Source: Heterodontus francisci | Lineage: Eukaryota | Assembly (NCBI RefSeq): GCF_036365525.1 | Contig: NW_027141701.1 | Location: 62,001 to 126,000, forward strand | DNA: 64,000 nt | Direction: 5' to 3' | Shown: one piece after another, positions 23,778-62,835 of the stretch | How the letters are laid out: each line of letters opens with the position of its first letter | How positions within the stretch are numbered: the first letter of the stretch is position 1 | Translations under genes and position numbers: made by a program | The notes under the pieces: generated by a model | The model's input: the letters and a program-made list of their open reading frames with translations, nothing else | What the model was told of the DNA's origin: nothing | Databases searched by the model: none

Positions 23778-24128
23778 GGGTGGCACAGTGGCGCAGTGGT
23801 TAGCACCACAGTCCAGCCTCACAGCTCCAGCGACCCGGGTTCAGTTCTGGGTACTGCCTGTGCGGAGTTTGCAAGTTCTCCTTGTGTCTGTGTGGGTTTC
23901 CGCCGGGTGCTCCGGTTTCTTCCCACAGCCAAAGACTTGCAGGTTGATTAGTAAATTGGCTATTGTAAATTGCCCCTTGTGTAGGTCGGTGGTAGGAGAA
24001 TGGTGGGGATGTGGTAGAGAATATAGGGTTAATGTAAGATTAGTATAAATGGGTGGTTGTTGGTCGGCACAGACTCGGTGTGCCCAAGGGCCTGTTTCAG
24101 TGCTGTATCTCTGAATAAATAAATAAAT
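23778..24128 (+). mobile_element. tRNA-derived V-SINE (HE1-like)
   Basis: A and B boxes, V-domain 'gtgtgggtttccgccgggtgctccggttt', (aaat)n tail. Confidence 0.92.
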
Positions 24129-25493: not shown

Positions 25494-25624
25494 CTGATGA
25501 AAGGTCACTGACCTGAAACCATGAACTCTGCTTCTCTCTCCATAGATGCTGCCAGACCTGCTGAGTATTTCCAGCACGTTCTGTTTTTATTTCAGATTTC
25601 CAGCATCCGCAGTATTTTGCTTTT
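25494..25624 (+). ncRNA. Penelope-terminal fragment with minimal hammerhead ribozyme core
   Basis: CTGATGA (25494-25500), stem II aggtc/act/gacct, GAAA (25515-25518), followed by 'gatgctgccagacctgctgagtatttccagc'. Confidence 0.6.
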
Positions 25625-27614: not shown

Positions 27615-27654
27615 GCTTATACTTTTGAAAGACAACAGCTACTGGCAATCAATA

Positions 27655-36600: not shown

Positions 36601-39600
36601 ATCTCTCCCTCTGAGCTCTCTGTGACCACACCCTCCAATCTCTCTCTCTGATCTCTCTGTGACCACACCCTCCAATCCCTCCCTCTGATCTCTCAGTGAC
36701 CACACCCACCAATCTCTCCCTCTGATCTCTCGGTGACCACACTCTCCAATCTCTCTCTCTGATCTCTCTGTGACCACACGCTCCAATCTCTCTCTCTGAT
36801 CTCTCTGTGACCACACCCACCAATCTCTCCCTCTGAGCTCTCTGTGACCACACCCTCCAATCACTGTCTCTGATCTCTCTGTGACCACACACTCCAATCT
36901 TTCCCTCTGATCTCTCTGTGACCACACACTAGAATCTCTCTCTCTGATCTCTCTGTGACCACACCCTCCAATCTCTCCCTCTGATCTCTCAGTGACCACA
37001 CCCACCAATCTCTCCCTCTGATCTCTCTGTGACCACACCCTCCAATCTCTCTGATCTCTCTGTGACCACACCCTCCAATCTCTCCCTCTGAGCTCTCTGT
37101 GCCACACCCTCCAATCTTTCCCTCTGATCTCTCTGTGACCACACCCTCCAATCTCTCCCTCTGATCTCTCTGTGACCACAGCCTCCAATCTCTCCCTCTG
37201 ATCTCTCTGTGACATCCCACCAATCTCTCCCTCTGACCTCTCTGTGACCACACCCTCCAATCTCTCCCTCTGATCTCTCTGTGACCACACCCTCCAATCT
37301 CTCCCTCTGAGCTCTCTGTGCCTCACCCCCCAATCTTTCCCTCTGATCTCTCTGTAACCACACCCTCCAATCTCTCTCTCTGATCTCTCTGTGACCACAC
37401 CCCCCAATCTTTCCCTCTGATCTCTCTGTGACCACACCCTCCAATCACTCTCTCAGATCTCTCTGTGTCCACACCCTCCAATCTCTCTCTCTGATCTCTC
37501 TGTGACCACACCCTCCAATCTCTCACTCTGATCTCTCTGTGACCACACCCTCCAATCACTCTCTCAGATCTCTCTGTGACCACACCCTCCAATCTCTCTC
37601 TCTGATCTCTCTGTGACCACACCCTCCAATCTCTCTCTCTGATCTCTCTGTGACCACACCCGCCAATCTCTCCCTCTGAGCTCTCTGTACCACACCCTCC
37701 AATCTCTCCCTCTGATCTCTCTGTGACCACACCCTCCAATCTCTCCCTCTGAGCTCTCTGTGACCACTCCCTCCAATCTCTCCCTCTGATCTCTCTGTGA
37801 CCACACCCACCAATCTCTCCCTCTGATCTCTCTGTGACCACACCCTCCAATCTCTCCCTCTGATCTCTCTTTGACCACACCCACCAATCTCTCCCTCTGA
37901 TCTCTCTGTGACCACACCCACCAATCTCTCCCTCTGATCTCTCTGTGACCACACCCTCCAATCTCTCTCTCTGACCTCTCTGTGACCACACCCTCCAATC
38001 TCTCCCTCTGATCTCTCTGTGACCACACCCTCCAATCTCTCTGATCTCTCTGTGACCACACCCTCCAATCTCTCCCTCTGAGCTCTCTGTGCCACACCCT
38101 CCAATCTTTCCCTCTGATCTCTCTGTGACCACACCCTCCAATCTCTCCCTCTGATCTCTCTGTGACCACAGCCTCCAATCTCTCCCTCTGATCTCTCTGT
38201 GACCACAGCCTCCAATCTCTCCCTCTGATCTCTCTGTGACATCCCACCAATCTCTCCCTCTGACCTCTCTGTGACCGCACCCTCCAATCTCTCCCTCTGA
38301 TCTCTCTGTGACCACACCCTCCAATCTCTCCCTCTGAGCTCTCTGTGCCACACCCCCCAATCTTTCCCTCTGATCTCTCTGTAACCACACCCTCCAATCT
38401 CTCTCTCTGATCTCTCTGTGACCACACCCTCCAATCTCTCACTCTGACCTCTCTGTGACCACACCCTCCAATCACTCTCTCAGATCTCTCTGTGTCCACA
38501 CCCTCCAATCTCTCTCTCTGATCTCTCTGTGACCACACCCTCCAATCTCTCACTCTGATCTCTCTGTGACCACACCCTCCAATCACTCTCTCAGATCTCT
38601 CTGTGACCACACCCTCCAATCTCTCTCTCTGATCTCTCTGTGACCACACCCTCCAATCTCTCTCTCTGATCTCTCTGTGACCACACCCGCCAATCTCTCC
38701 CTCTGAGCTCTCTGTACCACACCCTCCAATCTCTCTCTCTGATCTCTCTGTGACCACACCCTCCAATCTTTCCCTCTGATCTCTCTGTGACCACACCCTC
38801 CAATCTCTCCCTCTGATCTCTCTGTGACCACACCCACCAATCTCTCCCTCTGATCTCTCTGTGACCACACCCTCCAATCTCTCCCTCTGATCTCTCTGTG
38901 ACCACACCCTCCAATCTCTCTCTCTGATCTCTCTGTGACCACACCCTCCAATCTTTCCCTCTGATCTCTCTGTGACCACACCCACCAATCTCTCCCTCTG
39001 ATCTCTCAGTGACCACACCCTCCAATCTCTCCCTCTGAGCTCTCTGTGACCACACCCTCCAATCTCTCCCTCTGAGCTCTCTGTGACCACACCCTCCAAT
39101 CTCTCTCTCTGATCTCTCTGTGACCACACCCTCCAATCCCTCCCTCTGATCTCTCAGTAACCACACCCACCAATCTCTCCCTCTGATCTCTCGGTGACCA
39201 CACTCTCCAATCTCTCTCTCTGATCTCTCTGTGACCACACGCTCCAATCTCTCTCTCTGATCTCTCTGTGACCACACCCACCAATCTCTCCCTCTGAGCT
39301 CTCTGTGACCACACCCTCCAATCACTCTCTCTGATCTCTCTGTGACCACACACTCTAATCTTTCCCTCTGATCTCTCTGTGACCACACACTAGAATCTCT
39401 CTCTCTGATCTCTCTGTGACCACACCCTCCAATCTCTCCCTCTGATCTCTCAGTGACCACACCCACCAATCCCTCCCTCTGATCTCTCTGTGACCACACC
39501 CTCCAATCTCTCTCTCTGATCTCTCTGTGACCACACCCTCCAATCTCTCCCTCTGAGCTCTCTGTGCCACACCCTCCAATCTTTCCCTCTGATCTCTCTG

Positions 39601-42260
39601 TGACCACACCCTCCAATCTCTCCCTCTGATCTCTCTGTGACCACAGCCTCCAATCTCTCCCTCTGATCTCTCTGTGACATCCCACCAATCTCTCCCTCTG
39701 ACCTCTCTGTGACCGCACCCTCCAATCTCTCCCTCTGATCTCTCTGTGACCACACCCTCCAATCTCTCCCTCTGAGCTCTCTGTGCCACACCCCCCAATC
39801 TTTCCCTCTGATCTCTCTGTAACCACACCCTCCAATCTCTCTCTCTGATCTCTCTGTGACCACACCCTCCAATCTCTCACTCTGACCTCTCCGTGACCAC
39901 ACCCTCCAATCACTCTCTCAGATCTCTCTGTGTCCACACCCTCCAATCTCTCTCTCTGATCTCTCTGTGACCACACCCTCCAATCTCTCACTCTGATCTC
40001 TCTGTGACCACACCCTCCAATCACTCTCTCAGATCTCTCTGTGACCACACCCTCCAATCACTCTCTCTGATCTCTCTGTGACCACACCCTCCAATCTCTC
40101 TCTCTGATCTCTCTGTGACCACACCCGCCAATCTCTCCCTCTGAGCTCTCTGTACCACACCCTCCAATCTCTCTCTCTGATCTCTCTGTGACCACACCCT
40201 CCAATCTTTCCCTCTGATCTCTCTGTGACCACACCCTCCAATCTCTCCCTCTGATCTCTCTGTGACCACACCCACCAATCTCTCCCTCTGATCTCTCTGT
40301 GACCACATCCTCCAATCTCTCCCTCTGATCTCTCTGTGACCACACCCTCCAATCTCTCTCTCTGATCTCTCTGTGACCACACCCTCCAATCACTCTCTCT
40401 GATCTCTCTGTGACCACACCCTCCAATCTTTCCCTCTGATCTCTCTGTGACCACACCCACCAATCTCTCCCTCTGATCTCTCAGTGACCACACCCTCCAA
40501 TCTCTCCCTCTGAGCTCTCTGTGACCACACCCTCCAATCTCTCCCTCTGAGCTCTCTGTGACCACACCCTCCAATCTCTCTCTCTGATCTCTCTGTGACC
40601 ACACCCTCCAATCCCTCCCTCTGATCTCTCAGTGACCACACCCACCAATCTCTCCCTCTGATCTCTCGGTGACCACACTCTCCAATCTCTCTCTCTGATC
40701 TCTCTGTGACCACACGCTCCAATCTCTCTCTCTCTGATCTCTCTGTGACCACACCCACCAATCTCTCCCTCTGAGCTCTCTGTGACCACACCCTCCAATC
40801 ACTCTCTCTGATCTCTCTGTGACCACACACTAGAATCTCTCTCTCTGATCTCTCTGTGACCACACCCTCCAATCTCTCCCTCTGATCTCTCAGTGACCAC
40901 ACCCACCAATCTCTCCCTCTGATCTCTCTGTGACCACACCCTCCAATCTCTCCCTCTGATCTCTCAGTGACCACACCCACCAATCTCTCCCTCTGATCTC
41001 TCTGTGACCACACCCTCCAATCTCTCCCTCTGATCTCTCTGTGACCACACCCTCCAATCTCTCTCTCTGATCTCTCTGTGACCACACCCTCCAATCACTC
41101 TCTCTGATCTCTCTGTGACCACACCCTCCAATCTTTCCCTCTGATCTCTCTGTGACCACACCCACCAATCACTCTCTCTGATCTCTCAGTGACCACACCC
41201 TCCAATCTCTCCCTCTGAGCTCTCTGTGACCACACCCTCCAATCTCTCCCTCTGAGCTCTCTGTGACCACACCCTCCAATCTCTCTCTCTGATCTCTCTG
41301 TGACCACACCCTCCAATCCCTCCCTCTGATCTCTCAGTGACCACACCCACCAATCTCTCCCTCTGATCTCTCGGTGACCACACTCTCCAATCTCTCCCTC
41401 TGATCTCTCTGTGACCACACGCTCCAATCTCTCTCTCTGATCTCTCTGTGACCACACCCACCAATCTCTCCCTCTGAGCTCTCTGTGACCACACCCTCCA
41501 ATCACTCTCTCTGATCTCTCTGTGACCACACACTAGAATCTCTCTCTCTGATCTCTCTGTGACCACACCCTCCAATCTCTCCCTCTGATCTCTCAGTGAC
41601 CACACCCACCAATCTCTCCCTCTGATCTCTCTGTGACCACACACTCCAATCTCTCCCTCTGATCTCTCAGTGACCACAGCCACCAATCTCTCCCTCTGAT
41701 CTCTCTGTGACCACACCCTCCAATTTCTCTCTCTGTTCTCTCTGTGACCACACCCTCCAATCTCTCCCTCTGAGCTCTCTGTGCCACACCCTCCAATCTC
41801 TCCCTCTGATCTCACTGTGACCACACCCTCCAATCTCTCCCTCTGAGCTCTCTGTGCCACACCCTCCAATCACTCTCTCTGATCTCTCTGTGACCACACC
41901 CTCCAATCTCTCCCTCTGATCTCTCTGGGACCACACCCTCCAATCTCTCCCTCTGATCTCTCTGTGACCACACCCTCCAATCTCTCTGTGACATCCCTCC
42001 AATCTCGCCCAGTTCCCTCCAAAATCTCCCTCAGATTTATCCCCCACCGCTCCAATCTTCCCCTGATCCCCCTCCAAAATCTCCCTCTGATCTCCCATAG
42101 GCCCCCCACCAATTTCTCCCACCAAACTCTCCCTCAGATTTCTCCCTCTGATCTCTATCTGTATTCCCTCTAATTCCTCTATGATTGCTCCTTGACCCTT
42201 TCTCTCTCTTTCTCTGATATATGACACACCCTCCCCTCTGATCATTCTGTATTGTCTCTG
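27655..42260. repeat. 37-bp satellite array, about 380 copies, core 27890-41990
   Basis: Unit ccctccaatctctccctctgatctctctgtgaccaca with 35- and 33-bp deletion variants and degenerate CT-rich edges. Confidence 0.98.
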
Positions 42261-42830: not shown

Positions 42831-45800
42831 TGGCACCTCCGACACTGCAGCTCTCCCTCAGTACCGACCCACCAACAATGCAGCACTCCCTCAGCACCGA
42901 CTCACCAACAATGCAGCACTCCCTCAGCACCGACTCACCAACAATGCAGCACTCCCTCAGTACTGACCCACCGACAGTGCAGCACTCCCTCAATACTGAC
43001 CCTCTGACAATGCAGCACTCCCTCAGGACCGACCCACTGACAGTGCAGCTGTCCCTCAGTACTGACCCACCGACAGTGCAGCTCTCCCTCAGTACCGACC
43101 CACCGACAATGCAGCTGTCCCTCAGTACTGACCCACCGACAGTGCAGCACTCCCTCAGTACTGACCCTCTGACAATGCAGCCCTCCCTCAGTACCGACCC
43201 ACTGACAATGCAGCTCTCCCTCAGTACTGACCCACCGACACTGCAGCCTTCCCTCAGTACTGACCCACCGACAATGCAGCACTCCCTCAGTACCGACCCA
43301 CTGACAATGCAGCTCTCCCTCAGTACTGACCCACCGACAGTGCAGCACACCCTCAGTACTTACCCTCTGACAGTGCAGCCCTCCCTCAGTACTGACCCAC
43401 CTACAGTGCAGCTCTCCCTCAGTACCGACCCACCGACAATGCAGCACTCCCTCAGTACTTACCCTCTGACAGTCCAGCCCTCCCTCAGTACTGACCCACC
43501 GAAAGTGCAGCCCTCCCTCAGTACTGACCCACCGACAGTGCAGCACTCCCTCAGTACTGACCCACCGACAGTGCAGCACTCCCTCAGTACTGACCCTCTG
43601 ACAGTGCAGCTCTCCCTCAGTACCAACCCACCGACAATGCAGCTCTCCCTCAGTACCGACCCACCGACAATGCAGCTGTCCCTCAGTACTTACTCTCTGA
43701 AAGTGCAGCCCTCCCTCAGTATTGACCCTCTGACAATGCAGCTCACCCTCTGTACCGACCCACCGACAGTGCAGCTCTCCCTCAGTACTGACCCACCGAC
43801 AGTGCAGCTCTCCCTCAGTACTGACCCACCGACAGTGCAGCTTTCCCTCAGTACTGACCCACCGACAATGCAGCACTCCCTCAGTACCGACCCACTGACA
43901 ATGCAGCTCTCCCTCAGTACTGACCCACCGACAGTGCAGCACACCCTCAGTACTTATCCTCTGACAGTGCAGCCCTCCCTCAGTACTGACCCACCGACAG
44001 TGCAGCTCTCCCTCAGTACCGACCCACCGACAATGCAGCACTCCCTCAGTACTTACCCTCTGACAGTGCAGCCCTCCCTCAGTACTGACCCACCGACAAT
44101 GCAGCACTCCCTCAGTACTGACCCACCGACAGTGCAGCACTCCCTCAGTACTGACCCACCGACAATGCAGCACTCCCTCAGTACTGACCCACCGACAGTG
44201 CAGCACTCCCTCAGTTCTGACCCTCTGACAATGCAGCACTCCCTCAGTACCGACCCACTGACGGTGCAGCTCTCCCTCAGTACTGACCCACCGACAGTGC
44301 AGCTCTCCCTCAGTACCGACCCACCGACAATGCAGCTGTCCCTCAGTACTGACCCTCTGACAGTGCAGCCCTCCCTCAGTATTGACCCTCTGACAATGCA
44401 GCTCTCTCTCAGTACCGACCCACCGACAGTGCAGCTCTCCCTCAGTACTGACCCACCGACAGTGCAGCTCTCCCTCAGTACCGACCCACCGACAATGCAG
44501 CTGTCCCTCAGTACTTACCCTCTGACAGTGCAGCCCTCCCTCAGTACTGACCCTCTGACAATGCAGCACTCCTTCAGTACTGACCCACCGACAGTGCAGC
44601 TCTCCCTCAGTACCGACCCACCGACAATGCAGCTGTCCCTCAGTACTTACCCTCTGACAGTGCAGCCCTCCCTCAGTACTTACCCTCTGACAGTGCAGCC
44701 CTCCCTCAGTACTTACCCTCTGACAGTGCAGCCCTCCCTCAGTACTTACCCTCTGACAATGCAGCTTTCCCTCAATACTGACCCACCGACAATGCAGCTC
44801 TCCCTCAGTACTGACCCACCGACAGTGCAGCTCTCCCTCAGTACTGACCCACCGACAGTGCAGCTCTCCCTCAGTACTGACCCACCGACAGTGCAGCACT
44901 CCCTCAGTACTGACCCAACGACACTGCAGCTTTCCCTCAGGACTGACCCACCGACAATGCAGCACTCCCTCAGTACCGACCCACTGACAATGCAGCTCTC
45001 CCGCAGTACTGACCCACCGACAGTGCAGCACTCCCTCAGTACTTATCCTCTGACAGTGCAGCCCTCCCTCAGTACCGACCCACCGACAATGCAGCACTCC
45101 CTCAGTACTTACCCTCTGACAGTGCAGCCCTCCCTCAGTACTGACCCACCGACAGTGCAGCTCTCCCTCAGTACCGACCCACCGACAATGCAGCACTCCC
45201 TCAGTACTTACCCTCTGACAGTGCAGCCCATCTCAGTACTGACCCACCGACAGTGCAGCCCTCCCTCAGTACTGACCCACCGACAGTGCAGCACTCCCTC
45301 AGTACTGACCCACCGACAGTGCAGCACTCCCTCAGTACTGACCCTCTGACAGTGCAGCTCTCCCTCAGTACCGACCCACCGACAATGCAGCTGTCCCTCA
45401 GTACTTACTCTCTGACAGTGCAGCCCTCCCTCAGTATTGACCCTCTGACAATGCAGCTCACCCTCTGTACCGACCCACCGACAGTGCAACTCTCCCTCAG
45501 TACTGACCCACCGACAGTGCAGCTCTCCCTCAGTACTGACCCACCGACAATGCAGCACTCCCTCAGTACCGACCCACTGACAATGCAGCTCTCCCTCAGG
45601 ACTGACCCACCGACAGTGCAGCACTCCCTCAGTACTTATCCTCTGACAGTGCAGCCCTCCCTCAGTACTGACCCACCGACAGTGCAGCTCTCCCTCAGTA
45701 CCGACCCACCGACAATGCAGCACTCCCTCAGTACTTACCCTCTGACAGTGCAGCCCTCCCTCAGTACTGACCCACCGACAATGCAGCACTCCCTCAGTAC

Positions 45801-48800
45801 TGACCCACCGACAATGCAGCACTCTCTCAGTACTGACCCACCGCAAATGCAGCTGTCCCTCAGTACTTACCCTCTGACAGTGCAGCCCACCCTCAGTATT
45901 GACCCTCTGACAGTGCAGCACTCCCTCAGTACTGACCCTCTGACAATGCAGCCCTCCCTCAGTACCGACCCACCGACAGTGCAGCTCTCCCTCAGTACTG
46001 ACCCTCTGACAGTGCAGCTCTCCCTCAGTACCGACCCACCGACAATGCAGCTGTCCCTCAGTACTTACTCTCTGACAGTGGAGCCCTCCCTCAGTATTGA
46101 CCCTCTGACAATGCAGCTCACCCTCTGTACCGACCCACCGACAGTGCAGCTCTCCCTCAGTACTGACCCACCGACAGTGCAGCTCTCCCTCAGTACTGAC
46201 CCACCGACAGTGCAGCTTTCCCTCAGTACTGACCCACCGACAATGCAGCACTCCCTCAGTACCGACCCACTGACAATGCAGCTCTCCCTCAGTACTGACC
46301 CACCGACAGTGCAGCACACCCTCAGTACTTATCCTCTGACAGTGCAGCCCTCCCTCAGTACTGACCCACCGACAGTGCAGCTCTCCCTCAGTACCGACCC
46401 ACCGACAATGCAGCACTCCCTCAGTACATACCCTCTGACAGTGCAGCCCTCCCTCAGTACTGACCCACCGACAATGCAGCACTCCCTCAGTACTGACCCA
46501 CCGACAGTGCAGCACTCCCTCAGTACTGACCCACCGACAATGCAGCACTCCCTCAGTACTGACCCACCGACAGTGCAGCACTCCCTCAGTACTGACCCTC
46601 TGACAATGCAGCACTCCCTCAGTACCGATCCACTGACCTTGCAGCTCTCCCTCAGTCCTGACCCACCGACAGTGCAGCTCTCCCTCAGTACCGACCCACC
46701 GACAATGCAGCTGTCCCTCAGTACTGACCCTCTGACAGTGCAGCCCTCCCTCAGTATTGACCCTCTGACAATGCAGCTCTCTCTCAGTACCGACCCACCG
46801 ACAGTGCAGCTCTCCCTCAGTACTGACCCACCGACAGTGCAGCTCTCCCTCAGTACCGACCCACCGACAATGCAGCTGTCCCTCAGTACTTACCCTCTGA
46901 CAGTGCAGCCCTCCCTCAGTACTGACCCTCTGACAATGCAGCACTCCTTCAGTACTGACCCACCGACAGTGCAGCTCTCCCTCAGTACCGACCCACCGAC
47001 AATGCAGCTGTCCCTCAGTACTTACCCTCTGACAGTGCAGCCCTCCCTCAGTACTTACCCTCTGACAGTGCAGCCCTCCCTCAGTACTTACCCTCTGACA
47101 GTGCAGCCCTCCCTCAGTACTTACCCTCTGACAATGCAGCTTTACCTCAATACTGACCCACCGACAATGCAGCTCTCCCTCAGTACTGACCCACCGACAG
47201 TGCAGCTCTCCCTCAGTACTGACCCACCGACAGTGCAGCTCTCCCTCAGTACTGACCCACCGACAGTGCAGCACTCCCTCAGTACTGACCCAAAGACACT
47301 GCAGCTTTCCCTCAGGACTGACCCACCGACAATGCAGCACTCCCTCAGTACCGACCCACTGACAATGCAGCTCTCCCGCAGTACTGACCCACCGACAGTG
47401 CAGCACTCCCTCAGTACTTATCCTCTGACAGTGCAGCCCTCCCTCAGTACTCACCCACCGACAGTGCAGCTCTCCCTCAGTACCGACCCACCGACAATGC
47501 AGCACTCCCTCAGTACTTACCCTCTGACAGTGCAGCCCTCCCTCAGTACTGACCCACCGACAGTGCAGCTCTCCCTCAGTACCGACCCACCGACAATGCA
47601 GCACTCCCTCAGTACTTACCCTCTGACAATGCAGCCCATCTCAGTACTGACCCACCGACAGTGCAGCCCTCCCTCAGTACTGACCCACCGACAGTGCAGC
47701 ACTCCCTCAGTACTGACCCACCGACAGTGCAGCTGTCCCTCAGTACTTACCCTCTGACAGTGCTGCCCTCCCTCAGTACTTACCCTCTGACAGTGCAGCC
47801 CTCCCTCAGTACTTACCCTCTGACAGTGCAGCCCTCCCTCAGTACTTACCCTCTGACAATGCAGCTTTCCCTCAATACTGACCCACCGACAATGCAGCTC
47901 TCCCTCAGTACTGACCCACCGACAGTGCAGCTCTCCCTCAGTCCTGACCCACCGACAGTGCAGCTCTCCCTCAGTACTGACCCACCGACAGTGCAGCACT
48001 CCCTCAGTACTGACCCAACGACACTGCAGCTTTCCCTCAGGACTGACCCACCGACAATGCAGCACTCCCTCAGTACCGACCCACTGACAATGCAGCTCTC
48101 CCTCAGTACTGACCCACCGACAGTGCAGCACTCCCTCAGTACTTATCCTCTGACAGTGCAGCCCTCCCTCAGTACTGACCCACCGACAGTGCAGCTCTCC
48201 CTCAGTACCGACCCACCGACAATGCAGCACTCCCTCAGTACTTACCCTCTGACAGTGCAGCCCTCCCTCAGTACTGACCCACCGCAAATGCAGCTGTCCC
48301 TCAGTACTTACCCTCTGACAGTGCAGCCCTCCCTCAGTATTGACCCTCTGACAGTGCAGCACTCCCTCAGTACTGACCCTCTGACAATGCAGCCCTCCCT
48401 CAGTACCGACCCACCGACAGTGCAGCTCTCCCTCAGTACTGACCCACCGACAGTGCAGCTCTCCCTCAGTACCGACCCACCGACAATGCAGCTATCCCTC
48501 AGTACTTACTCTCTGACAGTGCAGCCCTCCCTCAGTATTGACCCTCTGACAATGCAGCTCACCCTCTGTACCGACCCACCGACAGTGCAGCTCTCTCTCA
48601 GTACTGACCCACCGACAGTGCAGCTCTCCCTCAGTACCGACCCACCGACAATGCAGCTGTCCCTCAGTACTTACCCTCTGACAGTGCAGCCCTCCCTCAG
48701 TATTGACCCTCTGACAGTGCAGCACTCCCTCAGTACTGACCCTCTGACAGTGCAGCCCTCCCTCAGTACTGACCCACCGACAGTGCAGCACTCCCTCAGT

Positions 48801-51800
48801 ACTGACCCTCTGACAGTGCAGCTCTCCCTCAGTACCGACCCACCGACAATGCAGCTATCCCTCAGTACTTACTCTCTGACAGTGCAGCCCTCCCTCAGTA
48901 TTGACCCTCTGACAATGCAGCTCACCCTCTGTACCGACCCACCGACAGTGCAGCTCTCCCTCAGTACTGACCCACCGACAGTGCAGCTCTCCCTCAGTAC
49001 TGACCCACCGACAGTGCAGCTTTCCCTCAGTACTGACCCACCGACAATGCAGCACTCCCTCAGTACCGAACCACTGACAATGCAGCTCTCCCTCAGTACT
49101 GACCCACCGACAGTGCAGCACACCCTCAGTACTTATCCTCTGACAGTGCAGCCCTCCCTCAGTACTGACCCACCGACAGTGCAGCTCTCCCTCAGTACCG
49201 ACCCACCGACAATGCAGCACTCCCTCAGTACTTACCCTCTGACAGTGCAGCCCTCCCTCAGTACTGACCCACCGACAATGCAGCACTCCCTCAGTACTGA
49301 CCCACCGACAGTGCAGCACTCCCTCAGTACTGACCCACCGACAATGCAGCACTCCCTCAGTACTGACCCACCGACAGTGCAGCACTCCCTCAGTACTGAC
49401 CCTCTGACAATGCAGCACTCCCTCAGTACCGACCCACTGACCGTGCAGCTCTCCCTCAGTACTGACCCACCGACAGTGCAGCTCTCCCTCAGTACCGACC
49501 CACCGACAATGCAGCTGTCCCTCAGTGCTGACCCTCTGACAGTGCAGCCCTCCCTCAGTATTGACCCTCTGACAATGCAGCTCTCTCTCAGTACCGACCC
49601 ACCGACAGTGCAGCTCTCCCTCAGTACTGACCCACCGACAGTGCAGCTCTCCCTCAGTACCGACCCACCGACAATGCAGCTGTCCCTCAGTACTTACCCT
49701 CTGACAGTGCAGCCCTCCCTCAGTACTGACCCTCTGACAATGCAGCACTCCTTCAGTACTGACCCACCGACAGTGCAGCTCTCCCTCAGTACCGACCCAC
49801 CGACAATGCAGCTGTCCCTCAGTACTTACCCTCTGACAGTGCAGCCCTCCCTCAGTACTTACCCTCTGACAGTGCAGCCCTCCCTCAGTACTTACCCTCT
49901 GACAGTGCAGCCCTCCCTCAGTACTTACCCTCTGACAATGCAGCTTTACCTCAATACTGACCCACCGACAATGCAGCTCTCCCTCAGTACTGACCCACCG
50001 ACAGTGCAGCTCTCCCTCAGTACTGACCCACCGACAGTGCAGCTCTCCCTCAGTACTGACCCACCGCCAGTGCAGCACTCCCTCAGTACTGACCCAACGA
50101 CACTGCAGCTTTCCCTCAGGACTGACCCACTGACAATGCAGCACTCCCTCAGTACCGACCCACTGACAATGCAGCTCTCCCGCAGTACTGACCCACCGAC
50201 AGTGCAGCACTCCCTCAGTACTTATCCTCTGACAGTGCAGCCCTCCCTCAGTACTGACCCACCGACAGTGCAGCTCTCCCTCAGTACCGACCCACCGACA
50301 ATGCAGCTGTCCCTCAGTGCTGACCCTCTGACAGTGCAGCCCTCCCTCAGTATTGACCCTCTGACAATGCAGCTCTCTCTCAGTACCGACCCACCGACAG
50401 TGCAGCTCTCCCTCAGTACTGACCCACCGACAGTGCAGCTCTCCCTCAGTACCGACCCACCGACAATGCAGCTGTCCCTCAGTACTTACCCTCTGACAGT
50501 GCAGCCCTCCCTCAGTACTGACCCTCTGACAATGCAGCACTCCTTCAGTACTGACCCACCGACAGTGCAGCTCTCCCTCAGTACCGACCCACCGACAATG
50601 CAGCTGTCCCTCAGTACTTACCCTCTGACAGTGCAGCCCTCCCTCAGTACTTACCCTCTGACAGTGCAGCCCTCCCTCAGTACTTACCCTCTGACAGTGC
50701 AGCCCTCCCTCAGTACTTACCCTCTGACAATGCAGCTTTACCTCAATACTGACCCACCGACAATGCAGCTCTCCCTCAGTACTGACCCACCGACAGTGCA
50801 GCTCTCCCTCAGTACTGACCCACCGACAGTGCAGCTCTCCCTCAGTACTGACCCACCGCCAGTGCAGCACTCCCTCAGTACTGACCCAATGACACTGCAG
50901 CTTTCCCTCAGGACTGACCCACTGACAATGCAGCACTCCCTCAGTACCGACCCACTGACAATGCAGCTCTCCCGCAGTACTGACCCACCGACAGTGCAGC
51001 ACTCCCTCAGTACTTATCCTCTGACAGTGCAGCCCTCCCTCAGTACTGACCCACCGACAGTGCAGCTCTCCCTCAGTACCGACCCACCGACAATGCAGCA
51101 CTCCCTCAGTACTTACCCTCTGACAGTGCAGCCCTCCCTCAGTACTGACCCACCGACAGTGCAGCTCTCCCTCAGTACCGACCCACCGACAATGCAGCAC
51201 TCCCTCAGTACTTACCCTCTGACAGTGCAGCCCATCTCAGTACTGACCCACCGACAGTGCAGCCCTCCCTCAGTACTGACCCACCGACAGTGCAGCACTC
51301 CCTCAGTACTGACCCACCGACAGTGCAGCACTCCCTCAGTACTGACCCTCTGACAGTGCAGCTCTCCCTCAGTACCGACCCACCGACAATGCAGCTGTCC
51401 CTCAGTACTTACTCTCTGACAGTGCAGCCCTCCCTCAGTATTGACCCTCTGACAATGCAGCTCACCCTCTGTACCGACCCACCGACAGTGCAACTCTGCC
51501 TCAGTACTGACCCACCGACAGTGCAGCTCTCCCTCAGTACTGACCCACCGACAATGCTGCACTCCCTCAGTCCCGACCCACTGACAATGCAGCTCTCCCT
51601 CAGTACTGACCCACCGACAGTGCAGCACTCCCTCAGTACTTATCCTCTGACAGTGCAGCCCTCCCTCAGTACTGACCCACCGACAGTGCAGCTCTCCCTC
51701 AGTCCGGACCCACCGACAATGCAGCACTCCCTCAGTACTTACCCTCTGACAGTGCAGCCCTCCCTCAGTACTGACCTACCGACAATGCAGCACTCCCTCA

Positions 51801-54800
51801 GTACTGACCCACCGACAGTGCAGCCCTCCCTCAGTACTGACCCACCGACAATGCAGCACTCCCTCAGTACTGACCCACCGACAGTGCAGCACTCCCTCAG
51901 TACTGACCCTCTGACAATGCAGCACTCCCTCAGTACCGACCCACTGACCGTGCAGCTCTCCCTCAGTACTGACCCACCGACAGTGCAGCTCTCCCTCAGT
52001 ACCGACCCACCGACAATGCAGCTGTCCCTCAGTACTTACCCTCTGACAGTGCAGCCCTCCCTCAGTATTGACCCTCTGACAATGCAGCTATCTCTCAGTA
52101 CCGACCCACCGACAGTGCCGCTCTCCCTCAGTACTGACCCACCGACAGTGCAGCTCTCCCTCAGTACCGACCCACCGACAATGCAGCTGTCCCTCAGTAC
52201 TTACCCTCTGACAGTGCAGCCCTCCCTCAGTACTGACCCTCTGACAATGCAGCACTCCTTCAGTACTGACCCACCGACAGTGCAGCTCTCCCTCAGTACC
52301 GACCCACCGACAATGCAGCTGTCCCTCAGTACTTACCCTCTGACAGTGCAGCCCTCCCTCAGTACTTACCCTCTGACAGTGCAGCCCTCCCTCAGTACTT
52401 ACCCTCTGACAGTGCAGCCCTCCCTCAGTCCTTACCCTCTGACAATGCAGCTTTCCCTCAATACTGACCCACCGACAATGCAGCTCTCCCTCAGTACTGA
52501 CCCACCGACAGTGCAGCTCTCCCTCAGTCCTGACCCACCGACAGTGCAGCTCTCCCTCAGTACTGACCCACCGACAGTGCAGCACTCCCTCAGTACTGAC
52601 CCAACGACACTGCAGCTTTCCCTCAGGACTGACCCACCAACAATGCAGCACTCCCTCAGTACCGACCCACTGACAATGCAGCTCTCCCTCAGTACTGACC
52701 CACCGACAGTGCAGCACTCCCTCAGTACTTATCCTCTGACAGTGCAGCCCTCCCTCAGTACTGACCCACCGACAGTGCAGCTCTCCCTCAGTACCGACCC
52801 ACCGACAATGCAGCACTCCCTCAGTACTTACCCTCTGACAGTGCAGCCCTCCCTCAGTACCGACCCACCGCAAATGCAGCTGTCCCTCAGTACTTTCCCT
52901 CTGACAGTGCAGCACTCCCTCAATACTCACCCTCTGACAATGCAGCCCTCCCTCAGTATTGACCCTCTGACAGTGCAGCACTCCCTCAATACTGACCCTC
53001 TGACAATGCAGCCCTCCCTCAGTACTGACCCACCGACAGTGCAGCTCTCCCTCAGTACTGACCCACCGACAGTGCAGCTCTCCCTCAGTACCGACCCACC
53101 TACAATGCAGCTGTCCCTCAGTACTTACCCTCTGACAGTGCAGCCCTCCCTCAGTATTGACCCTCTGACAGTGCAGCACTCCCTCAGTACTGACCCTCTG
53201 ACAATGCAGCACTCCCTCAGTACTTACCCTCTGACAGTGCAGCCCTCCCTCAGTACTTACCCTCTGACAGTGCAGCCCTCCCTCAGTACTTACCCTCTGA
53301 CAATGCAGCTTTCCCTCAGTACTGACCCACCGACTGTGCAGCCCTCCCTCAAAACTTACCCTCTGACAGTGCAGCCCTCCCTCAGTACTTACCCTCTGAC
53401 AATGCAGCTTTCCCTCAGTGCTGACCCACCGACAGTGCAGCACTCCCTCAGTACTGACCCACCGACAGTGCAGCACTCCCTCAGTACTGACCCTCTGACA
53501 GTGCAGCTCTCCCTCAGTACCGACCCACCGACAATGCAGCTGTCCCTCAGTACTTACTCTCTGACAGTGCAGCCCTCCCTCAGTATTGACCCTCTGACAA
53601 TGCAGCTCACCCTCTGTACCGACCCACCGACAGTGCAACTCTGCCTCAGTACTGACCCACCGACAGTGCAGCTCTCCCTCAGTACTGACCCACCGACAAT
53701 GCTGCACTCCCTCAGTCCCGACCCACTGACAATGCAGCTCTCCCTCAGTACTGACCCACCGACAGTGCAGCACTCCCTCAGTACTTATCCTCTGACAGTG
53801 CAGCCCTCCCTCAGTACTGACCCACCGACAGTGCAGCTCTCCCTCAGTCCGGACCCACCGACAATGCAGCACTCCCTCAGTACTTACCCTCTGACAGTGC
53901 AGCCCTCCCTCAGTACTGACCTACCGACAATGCAGCACTCCCTCAGTACTGACCCACCGACAGTGCAGCCCTCCCTCAGTACTGACCCACCGACAATGCA
54001 GCACTCCCTCAGTACTGACCCACCGACAGTGCAGCACTCCCTCAGTACTGACCCTCTGACAATGCAGCACTCCCTCAGTACCGACCCACTGACCGTGCAG
54101 CTCTCCCTCAGTACTGACCCACCGACAGTGCAGCTCTCCCTCAGTACCGACCCACCGACAATGCAGCTGTCCCTCAGTACTTACCCTCTGACAGTGCAGC
54201 CCTCCCTCAGTATTGACCCTCTGACAATGCAGCTCTCTCTCAGTACCGACCCACCGACAGTGCCGCTCTCCCTCAGTACTGACCCACCGACAGTGCAGCT
54301 CTCCCTCAGTACCGACCCACCGACAATGCAGCTGTCCCTCAGTACTTACCCTCTGACAGTGCAGCCCTCCCTCAGTACTGACCCTCTGACAATGCAGCAC
54401 TCCTTCAGTACTGACCCACCGACAGTGCAGCTCTCCCTCAGTACCGACCCACCGACAATGCAGCTGTCCCTCAGTACTTACCCTCTGACAGTGCTGCACT
54501 CCCTCAGTACTTACCCTCTGACAGTGCAGCCCTCCCTCAGTACTTACCCTCTGACAGTGCAGCCCTCCCTCAGTCCTTACCCTCTGACAATGCAGCTTTC
54601 CCTCAATACTGACCCACCGACAATGCAGCTCTCCCTCAGTACTGACCCACCGACAGTGCAGCTCTCCCTCAGTCCTGACCCACCGACAGTGCAGCTCTCC
54701 CTCAGTACTGACCCACCGACAGTGCAGCACTCCCTCAGTACTGACCCAACGACACTGCAGCTTTCCCTCAGTACTGACCCACCGACAGTGCAGCACTCCC

Positions 54801-55832
54801 TCAGTACTTATCCTCTGACAGTGCAGCCCTCCCTCAGTACTGACCCACCGACAGTGCAGCTCTCCCTCAGTACCGACCCACCGACAATGCAGCACTCCCT
54901 CAGTACTTACCCTCTGACAGTGCAGCCCTCCCTCAGTACCGACCCACCGCAAATGCAGCTGTCCCTCAGTACTTTCCCTCTGACAGTGCAGCACTCCCTC
55001 AATACTCACCCTCTGACAATGCAGCCCTCCCTCAGTATTGACCCTCTGACAGTGCAGCACTCCCTCAATACTGACCCTCTGACAATGCAGCCCTCCCTCA
55101 GTACTGACCCACCGACAGTGCAGCTCTCCCTCAGTACTGACCCACCGACAGTGCAGCTCTCCCTCAGTACCGACCCACCTACAATGCAGCTGTCCCTCAG
55201 TACTTACCCTCTGACAGTGCAGCCCTCCCTCAGTATTGACCCTCTGACAGTGCAGCACTCCCTCAGTACTGACCCTCTGACAATGCAGCACTCCCTCAGT
55301 ACTTACCCTCTGACAGTGCAGCCCTCCCTCAGTACTTACCCTCTGACAGTGCAGCCCTCCCTCAGTACTTACCCTCTGACAATGCAGCTTTCCCTCAGTA
55401 CTGACCCACCGACTGTGCAGCCCTCCCTCAAAACTTACCCTCTGACAGTGCAGCCCTCCCTCAGTACTTACCCTCTGACAATGCAGCTTTCCCTCAGTGC
55501 TGACCCACCGACAATGCAGCTGCCCCTCAGTACTTACCCTCTGACAGCACAGCACTCCCTCAGTACTTACCCTCTGACAGTGCAGCCCTCCCTCAGTATT
55601 TACCCTCTGACAATGCAGCCCTCCTTCAGTACTGCCCCTCCGACAGTGCTGTGCTCTCTCAGTACCGACCCTCCGACAGTGCAGCACTCCCTCAGGACTG
55701 ACCCACCGACAGTGCAGCACTCCCTCAGTACTGCCCCTCCGACAGTGCTGTGCTCTCTCAGTACCGACCCTCCGACTGTGCAGCACTCCCTCCGTACTGA
55801 CCCTCCGACAGTGCAGCACTCCCTCAGTACTG
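42831..55832. repeat. 33-bp satellite array, about 394 copies
   Basis: Unit cagtgcagcactccctcagtactgacccaccga; 11-aa periodicity; three 32-bp variants shift the frame. Confidence 0.98.
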
Positions 55833-55920
55833 CACTAAAGCATCAGCCTAGATTTTGTGCTGAATGATTGGGAAATTCTGATTGTGAGGTGAGAGTGCTA
55901 CCATCGAGGCCCAGCTGACA
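42831..55920 (-). mobile_element. Deu-domain SINE (SacSINE1/AmnSINE1-like) hosting the 33-bp array
   Basis: Left edge 'ggcacctccgaca' and right edge 'cagtactgcact..catcagcctagattttgtgct...gaggtgagagtgctacc...cagctgaca' match consecutive parts of the reverse-complemented Deu-SINE head and body as recalled. Confidence 0.75.
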
Positions 55921-55984
55921 TCACATAAAAAAGAATATTTCCACTGAGAGTGCAGTGGGCTTGACTGAAAAAAGTAGATCAAGC

Positions 55985-56569
55985 CTGGTCTTGATAATGA
56001 GGTTCACTCTCCTCAGGTATAGGTCATTCCTTTCGGGTTTGGTGAGGTGACCCTGTTATGTATTCCACTCCTGCTAACTTTCTGCAGTTGTGTTTGTGTT
56101 TAACAAACTTGCTGGTGTATTTTGCAATGATCTTATAGGGCTCTGTCTCTGTGCATTGGGAACAGAGAGACCTCAGGTTTCTGAACAGCACAAACCTTGT
56201 AAGCATCTGACATTTCAACATTCCTTCCAGACACAACATGTAGATGCAGTTATCCATTATATATTCAACACACATCCCCACCACAGAGAACACATCAGAG
56301 CCCAGTTTACCCGCGTTTCCTGTTATAGTCACCAGGATGGGCTCCTGTACCCACAACCATAAACTGTCTACAATTTCTATGTAACATGACTGAGCTTCAT
56401 ATTCTGGGATAACCAGCCTGTTAAAGCCTGAAAGTGAAGCAAGTTTCCCTTTCCTCATTGTCTGGGTTTGACACTGTGAGGTATGTGTGATGGTCAATAA
56501 CGATCCAGTGTTTATCAATAAATCCTGTCTGTGGCCAACCAGAACAACTGGGTAAAGCAACCCCATCAC
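55985..56569 (-). pseudogene. pol: ERV-B aspartic protease plus RT N-terminus remnant
   Basis: 'LLINTGS' (DTG with D to N), flap-like 'LSGF', 'KLGSDVF' (ILGxD); then 'KHKHNCRK..GVEYITGSPHQTRKE*PIPEES' resembling the pre-RT QYP motif. Confidence 0.7.
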
Positions 56570-59500
56570 ATCAGACCCTCACTCCGACTGTGGGAAGACC
56601 ACTCCCTCCTCACGCCCCTATCACATCAGACCCTCACTCCGACTGTGGGGAGACCACTCCCTCCTCACGCCCCTATCACATCAGACTCTCCTTCCGGCTG
56701 TGGGGAGAACACCCCACCTCACTCTCCCATCATATTGGACCCTTATACCAGCTGTAGGGACACCACTCCTCCCTCAATCCTCCATCAGCTTGGACACTCA
56801 CTCCAACTGTGGGGAGACCACTCCCTCCACCCTAACCTATCACATCGGACACTCACTCCAACTGTGGGGAGACCACTCCCTCCTCCCTAACCCATCACAT
56901 TGGACCCTCACTCTCAACTGTGGGGAGACCACTCCCTCCACCCGAACTCATCACATCGGACACTCACTCCAACTGTAGGGAGACCACTCCCTCCACCCTA
57001 ACCTATCACATCGGACCCTCACTCCAACTGTGGGGAGACCACTCCCTCCTCCCTAACCGATTACATCGGACACTCACTCTAACTGTGGGGAGACCACTCC
57101 CTCCACCCTAACCTATCACATCGGACCCTCACTCCAACTGTGGGGAGACCACTCCCTCCTCCATAACCGATCACATCGGACACTCACTCCAACTGTAGGG
57201 AGCCCACTCCCTCCTCCCTAACCTATCACATCGGACCCTCACTCCAACTGTGGGGAGCCCACTCCCTCCTCCCTAACCCATCACATTGGACCCTCACTCC
57301 AACCGTAGGGAGCCCACTCCCTCCTCCCTAACCCATCACATTGGACCCTCACTCTCAACTGTGGGGAGACCACTCCCTCCTCCCTAACCTATCACATCGG
57401 ACCCTCACTCTCAACTGTGGGGAGCCCACTCCCTCCTCCCTAACCCATCACATTGGACTCTCACTCCAACTGTGGGGAGACCACTCCCTCCTCCCTCAAT
57501 CCTCCATCAGATTGGACCCTCACTCCAACTGTGGGGAGACCACTCCCTCCTCCCTAACCGATCACATCGGACCCTCACTCCAACTGTGGGGAGACCACTC
57601 CCTCCTCCCTAACCCATCACATTGGACCCTCACTCCAACTGTGGGGAGACCACTCCCTCCTCCCTAACCGATCACATCGGACACTCACTCCAACTGTGGG
57701 GAGACCACTCCCTCCTCCCTAACCCATCACATTGGACCCTCACTCCAACTGTGGGGAGACCACTCCCTCCTCCCTAACCCATCACATTGGACCCTCACTC
57801 CAACTGTGGGGAGACCACTCCCTCCTCCCTAACCGATCACATCGGACACTCACTCCAACTGTGGGGAGACCACTCCCTCCTCCCTAACCGATCACATCGG
57901 ACACTCACTCCAACTGTGGGGAGACCACTCCCTCCTCCCTAACCTATCACATCGGACCCTCACTCCAACTGTGGGGAGACCACTCCCTCCTCCCTAACCG
58001 ATCACATCGGACACTCACTCCAACTGTGGGGAGACCACTCCCTCCTCCCTAACCGATCACATCGGACACTCACTCCAACTGTGGGGAGCCCACTCCCTCC
58101 TCTCTAACCCATCACATTGGACACTCACTCCAACTGTAGAGAGACCACTCCCTCCACCCTAACCTATCACATCGGACCCTCACTCCAACTGTGGGGAGAC
58201 CACTCCCTCCTCCCTAACCGATTACATCGGACACTCACTCTAACTGTGGGGAGACCACTCCCTCCACCCTAACCTATCACATCGGACCCTCACTCCAACT
58301 GTGGGGAGACCACTCCCTCCTCCATAACCGATCACATCGGACACTCACTCCAACTGTAGGGAGCCCACTCCCTCCTCCCTAACCTATCACATCGGACCCT
58401 CACTCCAACTGTGGGGAGCCCACTCCCTCCTCCCTAACCCATCACATTGGACCCTCACTCCAACCGTAGGGAGCCCACTCCCTCCTCCCTAACCCATCAC
58501 ATTGGACCCTCACTCTCAACTGTGGGGAGACCACTCCCTCCTCCCTAACCTATCACATCGGACCCTCACTCTCAACTGTGGGGAGCCCACTCCCTCCTCC
58601 CTAACCCATCACATTGGACTCTCACTCCAACTGTGGGGAGACCACTCCCTCCTCCCTCAATCCTCCATCAGATTGGACCCTCACTCCAACTGTGGGGAGA
58701 CCACTCCCTCCTCCCTAACCGATCACATCGGACCCTCACTCCAACTGTGGGGAGACCACTCCCTCCTCCCTAACCCATCACATTGGACCCTCACTCCAAC
58801 TGTGGGGAGACCACTCCCTCCTCCCTAACCGATCACATCGGACACTCACTCCAACTGTGGGGAGACCACTCCCTCCTCCCTAACCCATCACATTGGACCC
58901 TCACTCCAACTGTGGGGAGACCACTCCCTCCTCCCTAACCCATCACATTGGACCCTCACTCCAACTGTGGGGAGACCACTCCCTCCTCCCTAACCGATCA
59001 CATCGGACACTCACTCCAACTGTGGGGAGACCACTCCCTCCTCCCTAACCGATCACATCGGACACTCACTCCAACTGTGGGGAGACCACTCCCTCCTCCC
59101 TAACCTATCACATCGGACCCTCACTCCAACTGTGGGGAGACCACTCCCTCCTCCCTAACCGATCACATCGGACACTCACTCCAACTGTGGGGAGACCACT
59201 CCCTCCTCCCTAACCGATCACATCGGACACTCACTCCAACTGTGGGGAGCCCACTCCCTCCTCTCTAACCCATCACATTGGACACTCACTCCAACTGTAG
59301 AGAGACCACTCCCTCCTCCCTAACCTATCACATCGGACCCTCACTCTCAACTATGGGGAGACCACTCCCTCCTCCCTAACCTATCACATCGGACCCTCAC
59401 TCTCAACTGTGGGGAGCCCACTCCCTCCTCCCTAACTCATCACATCGGACCCTCACTCAACTGTGGGGAGCCCACTCCCTCCTCCCTAACCTATCACATC

Positions 59501-61400
59501 GGACCCTCACTCTCAACTGTGGGGAGACCACTCCCTCCTCCCTAACCGATCACATCGGACACTCACTCCAACTGTGGGGAGCCCACTCCCTCCTCCCTAA
59601 CCTATCACATCGGACCCTCACTCAACTGTGGGGAGCCCACTCCCTCCTCCCTAACCTATCACATCGGACCCTCACTCCAACTGTAGGGAGCCCACTCCCT
59701 CCTCCCTAACCCATCACATTGGACCCTCACTCTCAACTGTGGGGAGACCACTCCCTCCTCCCTAACCCATCACATTGGACCCTCACTCTCAACTATGGGG
59801 AGCCCACTCCCTCCTCCCTAACCTATCACATCGGACCCTCACTCCAACTGTGGGGAGCCCACTCCCTCCTCCCTAACCCATCACATTGGACCCTCACTCC
59901 AACCGTAGGGAGCCCACTCCCTCCTCCCTAACCCATCACATTGGACCCTCACTCTCAACTGTGGGGAGACCACTCCCTCCTCCCTAACCTATCACATCGG
60001 ACCCTCACTCTCAACTGTGGGGAGCCCACTCCCTCCTCCCTAACCCATCACATTGGACTCTCACTCCAACTGTGGGGAGACCACTCCCTCCTCCCTCAAT
60101 CCTCCATCAGATTGGACCCTCACTCCAACTGTGGGGAGACCACTCCCTCCTCCCTAACCGATCACATCGGACCCTCACTCCAACTGTGGGGAGACCACTC
60201 CCTCCTCCCTAACCCATCACATTGGACCCTCACTCCAACTGTGGGGAGACCACTCCCTCCTCCCTAACCGATCACATCGGACACTCACTCCAACTGTGGG
60301 GAGACCACTCCCTCCTCCCTAACCCATCACATTGGACCCTCACTCCAACTGTGGGGAGACCACTCCCTCCTCCCTAACCCATCACATTGGACCCTCACTC
60401 CAACTGTGGGGAGACCACTCCCTCCTCCCTAACCGATCACATCGGACACTCACTCCAACTGTGGGGAGACCACTCCCTCCTCCCTAACCGATCACATCGG
60501 ACACTCACTCCAACTGTGGGGAGACCACTCCCTCCTCCCTAACCTATCGCATCGGACCCTCACTCCAACTGTGGGGAGACCACTCCCTCCTCCCTAACCG
60601 ATCACATCGGACACTCACTCCAACTGTGGGGAGACCACTCCCTCCTCCCTAACCGATCACATCGGACACTCACTCCAACTGTGGGGAGCCCACTCCCTCC
60701 TCTCTAACCCATCACATTGGACACTCACTCCAACTGTAGAGAGACCACTCCCTCCTCCCTAACCTATCACATCGGACCCTCACTCTCAACTATGGGGAGA
60801 CCACTCCCTCCTCCCTAACCTATCACATCGGACCCTCACTCTCAACTGTGGGGAGCCCACTCCCTCCTCCCTAACTCATCACATCGGACCCTCACTCAAC
60901 TGTGAGGAGCCCACTCCCTCCTCCCTAACCTATCACATCGGACCCTCACTCTCAACTGTGGGGAGACCACTCCCTCCTCCCTAACCGATCACATCGGACA
61001 CTCACTCCAACTGTGGGGAGCCCACTCCCTCCTCCCTAACCTATCACATCGGACCCTCACTCAACTGTGGGGAGCCCACTCCCTCCTCCCTAACCTATCA
61101 CATCGGACCCTCACTCCAACTGTAGGGAGCCCACTCCCTCCTCCCTAACCCATCACATTGGACCCTCACTCTCAACTGTGGGGAGACCACTCCCTCCTCC
61201 CTAACCCATCACATTGGACCCTCACTCTCAACTATGGGGAGACCACTCCCTCCTCCCTAACCTATCACATCGGACCCTCACTCTCAACTGTGGGGAGCCC
61301 ACTCCCTCCTCCCTAACCTATCGCATTGGACCCTCACTCTCAACTGTGGGGAGACCACTCCCTCCTCCCTAACCCATCACATTGGACCCTCACTCCTGAC
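56560..61400. repeat. 55-bp satellite array, about 88 copies
   Basis: Unit ccactccctcctccctaacccatcacattggaccctcactccaactgtggggaga; 110-bp spacing between 57611 and 57721. Confidence 0.97.
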
Positions 61401-61487
61401 TATGAGGAGGCCTCTCCTTCTCTATTGGGATTCTCTGTTGGCCATGCCTCCTTCTGTTGATCTTGACTGTAGGGTAATGGGAGGCCC

Positions 61488-62330
61488 TCAGCTTGCTGCA
61501 GCCACTCTCTCAGTAATCTTCTCCATGTTCAGCAGAGTTTCTAATCGCTCAATCTGTTGTCCAAAGCAGTGAATGTGATCACTTTCTCCTCCATCTCCTC
61601 CCTAGGGAGCTCGTCCAAAGTGTGGACCCCCTTTCTCTCCCAGATCTCCAATTCCTGTCCACATGACCTGGTTTATCACAGTTCGAGTAGTTCAGACTGT
61701 GTGTGGCTCGCTTGTGGACTGGCTCAGTCCCAGTCTCTGTCCCTAGTGGGACAAGGCTCGTCCACAGCTGAGACCTGCCTTTTCTGAGTCTCCGCTGCTC
61801 AAACTCACTCACCTGCTGGATGATCCCAACCTGGTGTCACCTCTTATCTAGCTTGTTCCCAGTCCAATCCTGTGTGGACCGACACTCCCACCTTCTCCTT
61901 TAGAATGGGAGATAATCAAACAAGGAATAAGGATTTAAATCTGGGGTCTGTCATGGCTGGTGCTCACTTCCCTTCTCCTCCTGTCACCCCTACTCCCAAG
62001 ATATAAATGTTAAAGATGCTCTAGAATGTTTCAGGGCTCCTTGTCTTACTCCACCCGCCTGTGCTAATAGTTAGGCAGGGTCCATCCCTAAGATAGTCAG
62101 TATTGCCCTTGTCAGCAGGAACATCTCAATCAGTTGCATCTTCCAGCCCCTCCTGGACCATTCGCCGTTCCACCACACTTTTACATGTCTACTTTAAACC
62201 TGAGCAAACACGAGTTCCTGTTGACACTATTTGTGGTTTCCTGTATCTGGGGTTGACTTGGTCTGTGGTGCAGCCTTTAATGTTGCCTGTGTATCCTTTA
62301 GGTTACTTTTACAGCTACCTTCTCCCTTAA
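61488..62330 (-). pseudogene. gag: ERV-B gag remnant (coiled coil, MHR/CA-CTD, zinc knuckle)
   Basis: MHR-like 'VRQG' near 62040; 'DPRFKSLFLV*LSPILKEKV' at about 61890-61948; decayed CCHC knuckle 'YSNCDKPGHVDRNW' at 61648-61689; terminal '...ERVAAAS*' with TGA at 61488-61490. Confidence 0.7.
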
Positions 62331-62437
62331 CCCATTGTTTATCTTACAGTTTCCAATATCCCCTCCACACTGATTTGCCATCCTGCTTATTGACATTGGA
62401 GTGTCACTGGTCTTCCTTGGAGGTAGACTCACTCTGC

Positions 62438-62597: not shown

Positions 62598-62835
62598 ACT
62601 GGGCACAGCTCACAGACCCAGAACACGGGGCAGAGGAATCACACAGTCTGAACTGGACACAGCTCACAGACCCAGAACACGGGGCAGAGAAATCACACAG
62701 TCTGAACTGGGCACAGCTCACAGACCCAGAACACGGGGCAGAGGAATCACACAGTCTGAACTGGACACAGCTCACAGACCCAGAACACGGGGCAGAGGAA
62801 TCACACAGTCTGAACTGGACACAGCTCAGAGCCCG
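62598..62835. repeat. 54-bp tandem repeat, about 4.3 copies
   Basis: Unit g(g/a)cacagctcacagacccagaacacggggcagaggaatcacacagtctgaactg. Confidence 0.95.

Follow-up and report, generated by a model that had tools for sequence, protein, structure and literature searches.

The window analysed here, meaning the whole stretch of 64,000 nt, contains a retroviral gag remnant and a protease remnant that are held apart by a long tandem array, and this raises the question of whether the repeats were made in place from the virus's own sequence or reached it from elsewhere. The initial annotation had described a 4.8-kb satellite at this place, derived from the spacer between gag and protease. The array itself is real. 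TRF, run over the window, called positions 56562-61396 with a period of 55, 87.4 copies and 92% matches; phased from a TAG codon at 61424, the array occupies 61424 to 56562 on the minus strand, or 4,863 bp, and 88 unit anchors were counted across it.

The units are 53-59 bp long (56562..61424, minus strand), and most of those of 55 bp read as TAG-GG plus 17 sense codons. Mean pairwise identity between units is 0.92, and the complete anchor-to-anchor units (n=87) fall into 35 types of 54-59 bp. Higher-order duplications lie between 56980 and 60548 on the minus strand: one kind of block comprises 26 units and measures 1,439 bp, another comprises 21 units and measures ~1,161 bp, and a perfect match of 1,176 bp is present. 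At the protease end lie four diverged terminal units (56562..56795, minus strand; 69-87% identity to the commonest unit), the last of which finishes in Asp-Gly, with a frame break relative to the protease reading at the array exit. The first, or entry, unit is 53 nt long and is identical to one internal unit at 46 of 55 positions. An array of 88 units with higher-order blocks and, as far as shown, no dispersed family is a minisatellite (VNTR), so that the earlier description holds for the array and not for the term satellite. It has no evident function and does not suggest a new one. A strong G-quadruplex drive of the expansion was rejected, the potential being modest (11 canonical motifs, with less than 1% of scoring windows reaching a G4Hunter-like 1.5), and so was a special RNA stability of the unit, which folds no better than shuffled sequences (z -1.05 and -0.84).

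On the far side of the array, at 55985..56561 on the minus strand, we find a dead protease with internal frame breaks, a linker and the first 14 or so codons of RT. The protease that had been annotated here was borne out, since a search of 1.84 billion proteins with 56575-55982 gave a single match, to a Pol of Xenopus tropicalis (E 2e-4), which aligned pairwise with the protease reading at E 3e-13 and 25% identity. This Pol carries two RNase H-like domains, and its relatives come from frogs and coelacanth. The annotated RT start is also present, but it amounts to only about 14 codons before the ERV is cut off at ~55985. When protease and RT start were scored together against individual relatives, z was 22.7 for P0001 (the Xenopus Pol), 22.2 for P0006 and 16.0 for P0005, then 5.6 for P0007 (the Latimeria Pol), 4.6 for P0008, 4.0 for P0010 and 3.5 for P0009, and 0.1 for L002. 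A second frame fits the relatives better at ~56230-56145 (equalled by 0 of 300 shuffles for two of the four relatives). A preserved protease ORF of 184 codons was rejected because part of it lies out of frame. Pfam gave only a sub-threshold DUF4714 on native and X-read frames, the PDB sequence search only chance kinase matches, a word-indexed protein search with the protease none of 473 candidates, and Rfam no match.

The similarity of the protease and RT start to SnRV-type Pol points to the identity of the element. By eye, the P0001-type RT resembles the SnRV row and not the Loki rows in the part of the PMC7947760 supplement that sets them out, and the RT of both P0001 and P0007 differs from Loki-Lch and fits SnRV; a lokiretrovirus identity was therefore dropped. 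Judged from these alignments, the element is a decayed and truncated snakehead-retrovirus-like (SnRV-like) ERV resembling CmiERV lineage I, from the elephant shark Callorhinchus milii, where SnRV-like ERVs have been reported (PMC4422223). This, together with SINE-like sequence in the window, suggests a shark or ray as host. The element has in common with CmiERV lineage I (PMC4422223), with snakehead retrovirus and with P0001/P0007 the protease-to-RT motifs and, judged by eye, appears to share a post-knuckle helix and an in-frame gag/pro stop. Unlike these relatives, the copy in the window is dead and truncated, with almost no RT and no RH, IN or env in continuity: it has 9-13 stops in each gag-side frame over 225 codons, Asn at the catalytic Asp position of the protease, frame breaks, and a SINE-like insertion that cuts it short. 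The CmiERV PBS motif, allowing at most 3 mismatches, had no match, and no LTR was seen with this truncated element.

On the gag side, a decayed and 5'-truncated gag of the SnRV-like ERV extends over 61422..62420 on the minus strand (upper limit approximate), with many stops and frame breaks. Its translation shows a broken MHR-like motif at 62000..62050, matched by eye to CmiERV scaffold 2 and without statistical support, a stretch like the CA C-terminal domain at 61840..61960, matched by eye to P0007 and CmiERV, and a degenerate zinc knuckle at 61648..61689, which keeps the Cx2Cx4Hx4C spacing and has lost two of three Cys. These three features had been named in the initial annotation, and the likeness is there to the eye, but neither Pfam (no match in any of 3 frames) nor alignment to the Latimeria gag part (nothing significant in a shuffle test) supported it. 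The Latimeria gag-pro part used as a query found only itself among 3,084 candidates. The order and spacing of MHR, knuckle and in-frame stop before the protease fit an SnRV-like ERV by eye only. Another gag-side frame aligned weakly to P0007, which would have favoured a foreign insertion; this alignment was rejected since 398 of 500 shuffles scored as well.

The end of gag could be placed from what follows the knuckle. A helix (QQIERLE..., 61491..61562, minus strand), whose start lies near codon 30 counted from the knuckle, sets the frame of the gag C-terminus. Two stops share this frame, a TGA at codon 53 (61488..61490) and, at codon 75, a TAG (61422..61424) that is also the first codon of the first unit. 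In CmiERV lineage I (PMC4422223), compared by eye, the corresponding helix EQWER lies at codons 28-32 after the knuckle and the stop at codon 70, and EG..NR..Q precedes the stop both there and at TAG 61424. Because the frame of the helix, the codon position and the EG..NR..Q match agree with CmiERV, gag most likely ended at TAG 61424. The TGA at 61490-61488, previously taken as the end of gag, does exist, but it would be an internal stop, and the spacer of about 90 bp that had been placed between gag stop and array is absent.

What, then, is the monomer? Similarity to the unit starts exactly at TAG 61424 and there is none before it, and from this point the array consists of 88 whole units. Its last codons, Asp-Gly at 56567-56562, immediately precede a strand whose counterpart in the Latimeria protease, by alignment, is the conserved RP strand. 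In the relatives, the RP-strand Arg follows the stop at a distance of 14 codons (L002), 19 codons (P0007, whose record carries no stop, so that its position was inferred) and 27 codons (CmiERV). In the window this distance would be 18 codons with one unit and 0-1 with none. In each of these relatives an acidic residue precedes the RP-strand Arg by 2-3 positions, and the unit ends in Asp-Gly; beyond this final acidic-Gly, the peptide of the unit has nothing in common with the arms of the relatives. The intact Asp-Gly ending is kept in 19 of the 82 TAG readings listed, most other 55-bp units ending in Asp-Arg, and the 54- and 56-bp units run into stops when read from TAG. A pattern of stop, GG, open frame and Asp-Gly at any phase occurred in 0.98% of 20,000 shuffled units, in a test that was designed post hoc.

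The units start with TAG-GGA, which may be compared with UAGGGC in SnRV and UAGGGA in MoMLV, with a G-rich spacer of 8 nt, and in these viruses the stretch after the stop codes for the protease's N-terminal fold (PMC13517186). Of the MoMLV-type readthrough cassette the unit shows the UAG-GG context, and its folding is no better than that of shuffles with a tool that does not predict pseudoknots. Because of its phase, its spacing, the whole-unit array and the agreement of one unit with the arm length in relatives, we judge the monomer to be most likely a coding arm. It is quite probable that it represents the readthrough stop plus the N-terminal arm of the protease, amplified after integration, and thus it would probably be coding readthrough DNA and not a spacer behind TGA 61488. 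Of the earlier proposal, an origin from the element's own gag-pro junction in place is supported by phase and spacing, but not an origin from a spacer.

Birth in place from the element's own gag-pro junction is the best explanation of the locus, and there is a good chance that it is correct. An SnRV-like retrovirus would have integrated and then decayed, and 55 bases, from the gag stop through the N-terminal arm of the protease, would have been duplicated head to tail in the chromosome, probably where a few bases of microhomology allowed slippage or repair. Later rounds of unequal exchange or of gene conversion may have enlarged and homogenised the array. The latest growth would be the copying of the 21- and 26-unit blocks, which are observed, their mechanism being inferred, and the end units would have escaped homogenisation. 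Growth appears to have followed the death of the element, because the flanks are heavily decayed and the units are 92% alike with a perfect repeat of 1,176 bp. The array has what is expected of one born in place, namely head-to-tail units within a range of up to ~100 copies and element flanks in register on both sides. We looked for the unexpanded state at the DNA level, and a single monomer-like copy was found at none of 80 metagenome loci; these are the 80 kept of 129 confirmed protein relatives, none of which matches the window protease ORF or flank DNA. The monomer core pattern had no match in viral contigs or in metagenome contigs, and in viral contigs none of 20 and none of 23 candidate stretches was confirmed. 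Only L002, one of the 80 kept relatives, has knuckle, stop and protease in one frame. L002 (L001 is near-identical) is a metagenome contig carrying a retrovirus-like element; its gag end is open, a knuckle is present, and an in-frame TAG precedes the protease Asp by 31 codons.

The edges of the array had also been offered as evidence for birth in place, since both appeared to grade into the monomer. Both quoted edge strings are in the window, and the entry edge scores 29, above the control windows (maximum 26, n=74), but the exit edge alone scores 18 and falls inside the control range (same maximum and n). Grading is in any case no such evidence, as any array has diverged end units. Public data were used to check the locus at the entry edge, in 4 of 8 listed runs. 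In each of three public runs of sample S1 the edge lies on a single contig of 1,267 bp, which begins in the gag flank, reaches the first unit and differs from the window once, and in a second sample, X5, it is covered in 29 of 30 bins; the entry edge is therefore not an assembly artefact. The gag flank itself is a single contig at a depth of 45-50, and no further long contig aligned to it at 80% or above in the three runs, with the limit that contigs show presence and not absence. Position 62181 is T in the window and C in all three S1 contig sets; here the window may carry a sequence error or stem from a different individual.

The same reads bear on the explanation that comes next after birth in place, namely that the host already had a family of such minisatellites, one of which landed in the ERV or converted it so that the native arm was replaced; the match in phase would then be a coincidence. 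In both samples there are monomer variants and loose ends that are missing from the window: four substitutions found in reads occur in none of the 88 units, and the window lacks five variant motifs taken from contigs or loose ends, as well as any junction of the entry signature with a full unit. Copies elsewhere are therefore possible, and within the 64-kb window itself the 55-mer has no other copy. In X5, about 188 monomer reads were found against ~58 expected, an excess of about 3-fold, where the expectation was derived from ~14 flank reads and an assumed read length of 130 nt in a capture library. This excess could reflect arrays elsewhere, but it could also come from longer alleles or from an array collapsed in the assembly, and the frequencies of common read variants track the window array (at 61383, for example, 0.66 and 0.64 in reads and 0.63 in the window). 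The pair of related 72- and 71-bp arrays in the window indicates that units can occupy more than one place. A host origin might also be read from the telomere-like motif GGGTTAGGG, contained in 24 units, but the TTAGGG motif straddles the join from unit to unit. A foreign family would also require deletion of the native arm and an array that is a whole number of units, each the size of an arm, running from the gag stop to Asp-Gly. We regard this explanation as unlikely, and prefer birth in place.

That gag ended at TGA 61488, with the monomer taken from a spacer between NC and protease, as the initial annotation had it, is very improbable. TGA followed by GGG is a plausible readthrough context, and the stop of L002 comes just 42 codons after the knuckle; however, in the closer relative gag extends as far as codon 70, with an ending similar to what precedes TAG 61424, the arm would be ~40 codons long versus 14-27 in relatives, and the stretch is coding in readthrough retroviruses (PMC13517186). 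It is hardly credible that reverse-transcriptase template switching during viral replication made the first duplications and the host merely enlarged the array, for although pausing linked to structure is plausible in a recoding cassette, with which the unit coincides, the folding of the units does not surpass that of shuffles (z -1.05, -0.84), a stop-bearing 55-nt repeat would disable pol, and a second provirus with repeats was not seen among the contigs of the three runs.

Minisatellites and satellites derived from transposable elements are well represented: mouse Ms6-hm/Hm-2 come from MaLR LTRs, and Alu-derived, soybean Gmr9 and Lathyrus Ogre-derived arrays are described in PMC6947457, PMC9659126 and PMC7004042. 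With these the window has in common a short retroelement stretch amplified in place, with the element on both sides and an occasional large expansion, and section 3.1 of PMC6947457 treats head-to-tail duplication followed by unequal exchange or conversion. Unlike the cases in these reviews, which are mostly LTR, UTR or other non-coding DNA, the window unit appears to match the coding gag stop and protease arm of a retrovirus proper. Coding sources are represented by rye E3900, with a gag fragment, and by PROsat and HinfI, with LINE ORF2 (PMC9659126), and in this the window resembles them; however, these are described as containing or resembling ORF fragments, whereas the window array keeps both flanks of its source gene, in register. 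Searches of an open-licence library brought up no array that derives from a readthrough junction between gag and pro. The process is nevertheless already documented, tandem repeats being born inside LTR elements, SINEs and ORFs including gag (PMC6947457, PMC9659126, PMC7004042), and the window is a tidy example of it. It gives an unusually legible view of the birth of a minisatellite, with boundaries supplied by viral gene anatomy, growth steps by the higher-order blocks, and relative timing by decayed flanks versus homogeneous units. Together with related shark or ray assemblies, it would offer an easy way to test when an array is born and by what route.

The surroundings are rich in arrays, which make up 34.5 of the 64 kb of the window (54%), so that the 55-bp array is only one among several local expansions in a permissive setting. 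The SINE-like insertion that truncates the ERV (42839..55925, minus strand, a repeat call) carries a 13-kb array of a 33-bp unit, which enters from and exits into SINE-like sequence, an in-place anatomy like that of the 55-mer. This is putative SacSINE1/Deu-domain sequence. The 33-bp array contains open frames as long as 1,572 codons, which seem to be due to chance. A small 54-bp array, also a repeat call, lies upstream of the gag remnant (62598..62828, minus strand). At 27660-42006 a unit of 37 bp forms an array of 14 kb, bordered on either side by shorter repeats that are degenerate. The related arrays with 72- and 71-bp units, at 10274-11253 and 11675-11841, are ~400 bp apart, and the first presumably interrupts the ORF of a non-LTR retrotransposon. 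ARAGORN called a tRNA-Thr at 11539-11630 on the minus strand, probably the head of a SINE.

The three large arrays (27879-61396), which are adjacent and apparently unrelated in origin, are C-rich on the plus strand. All three carry CTCCCTC on the same strand, 224 times in the 37-bp array, 298 times in the 33-bp array and 89 times in the 55-bp array, whereas 25.9 kb of DNA outside arrays has 2 copies on one strand and 4 on the other. In 74 units of the 55-mer, TTAGGG spans the join between units, read on the minus strand. It is doubtful that the readthrough cassette seeded the expansion through its sequence in a genome with a motif-directed expansion process; the smaller arrays limit this idea, with CTCCCTC present 0 times in the 72-bp, twice in the 69-bp and 0 times in the 54-bp array. 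If it were true, CTCCCTC would fit a recombination hotspot or a DNA-binding factor that turns any local carrier of the motif into an array, and further loci may by now have been seeded by the 55-mer.

The 37-bp array sits just upstream of the gag-like start of a second, different element, decayed and LTR/retrovirus-like, at 22500-27650 on the minus strand. It has a coiled-coil gag-like start at ~27615, pol-like scraps at ~24300-24900 and an env-like ORF at 22746-23285, and gave nothing usable with Pfam, Atlas or PDB. The env-like ORF shows a cysteine pattern, APxL..C...CP...CGL, that by eye is like the F-type Env of lokiretroviruses. Because lokiretroviruses were found in 0 of 6 chondrichthyan genomes (PMC7947760), an element with an F-type env here may merit attention.
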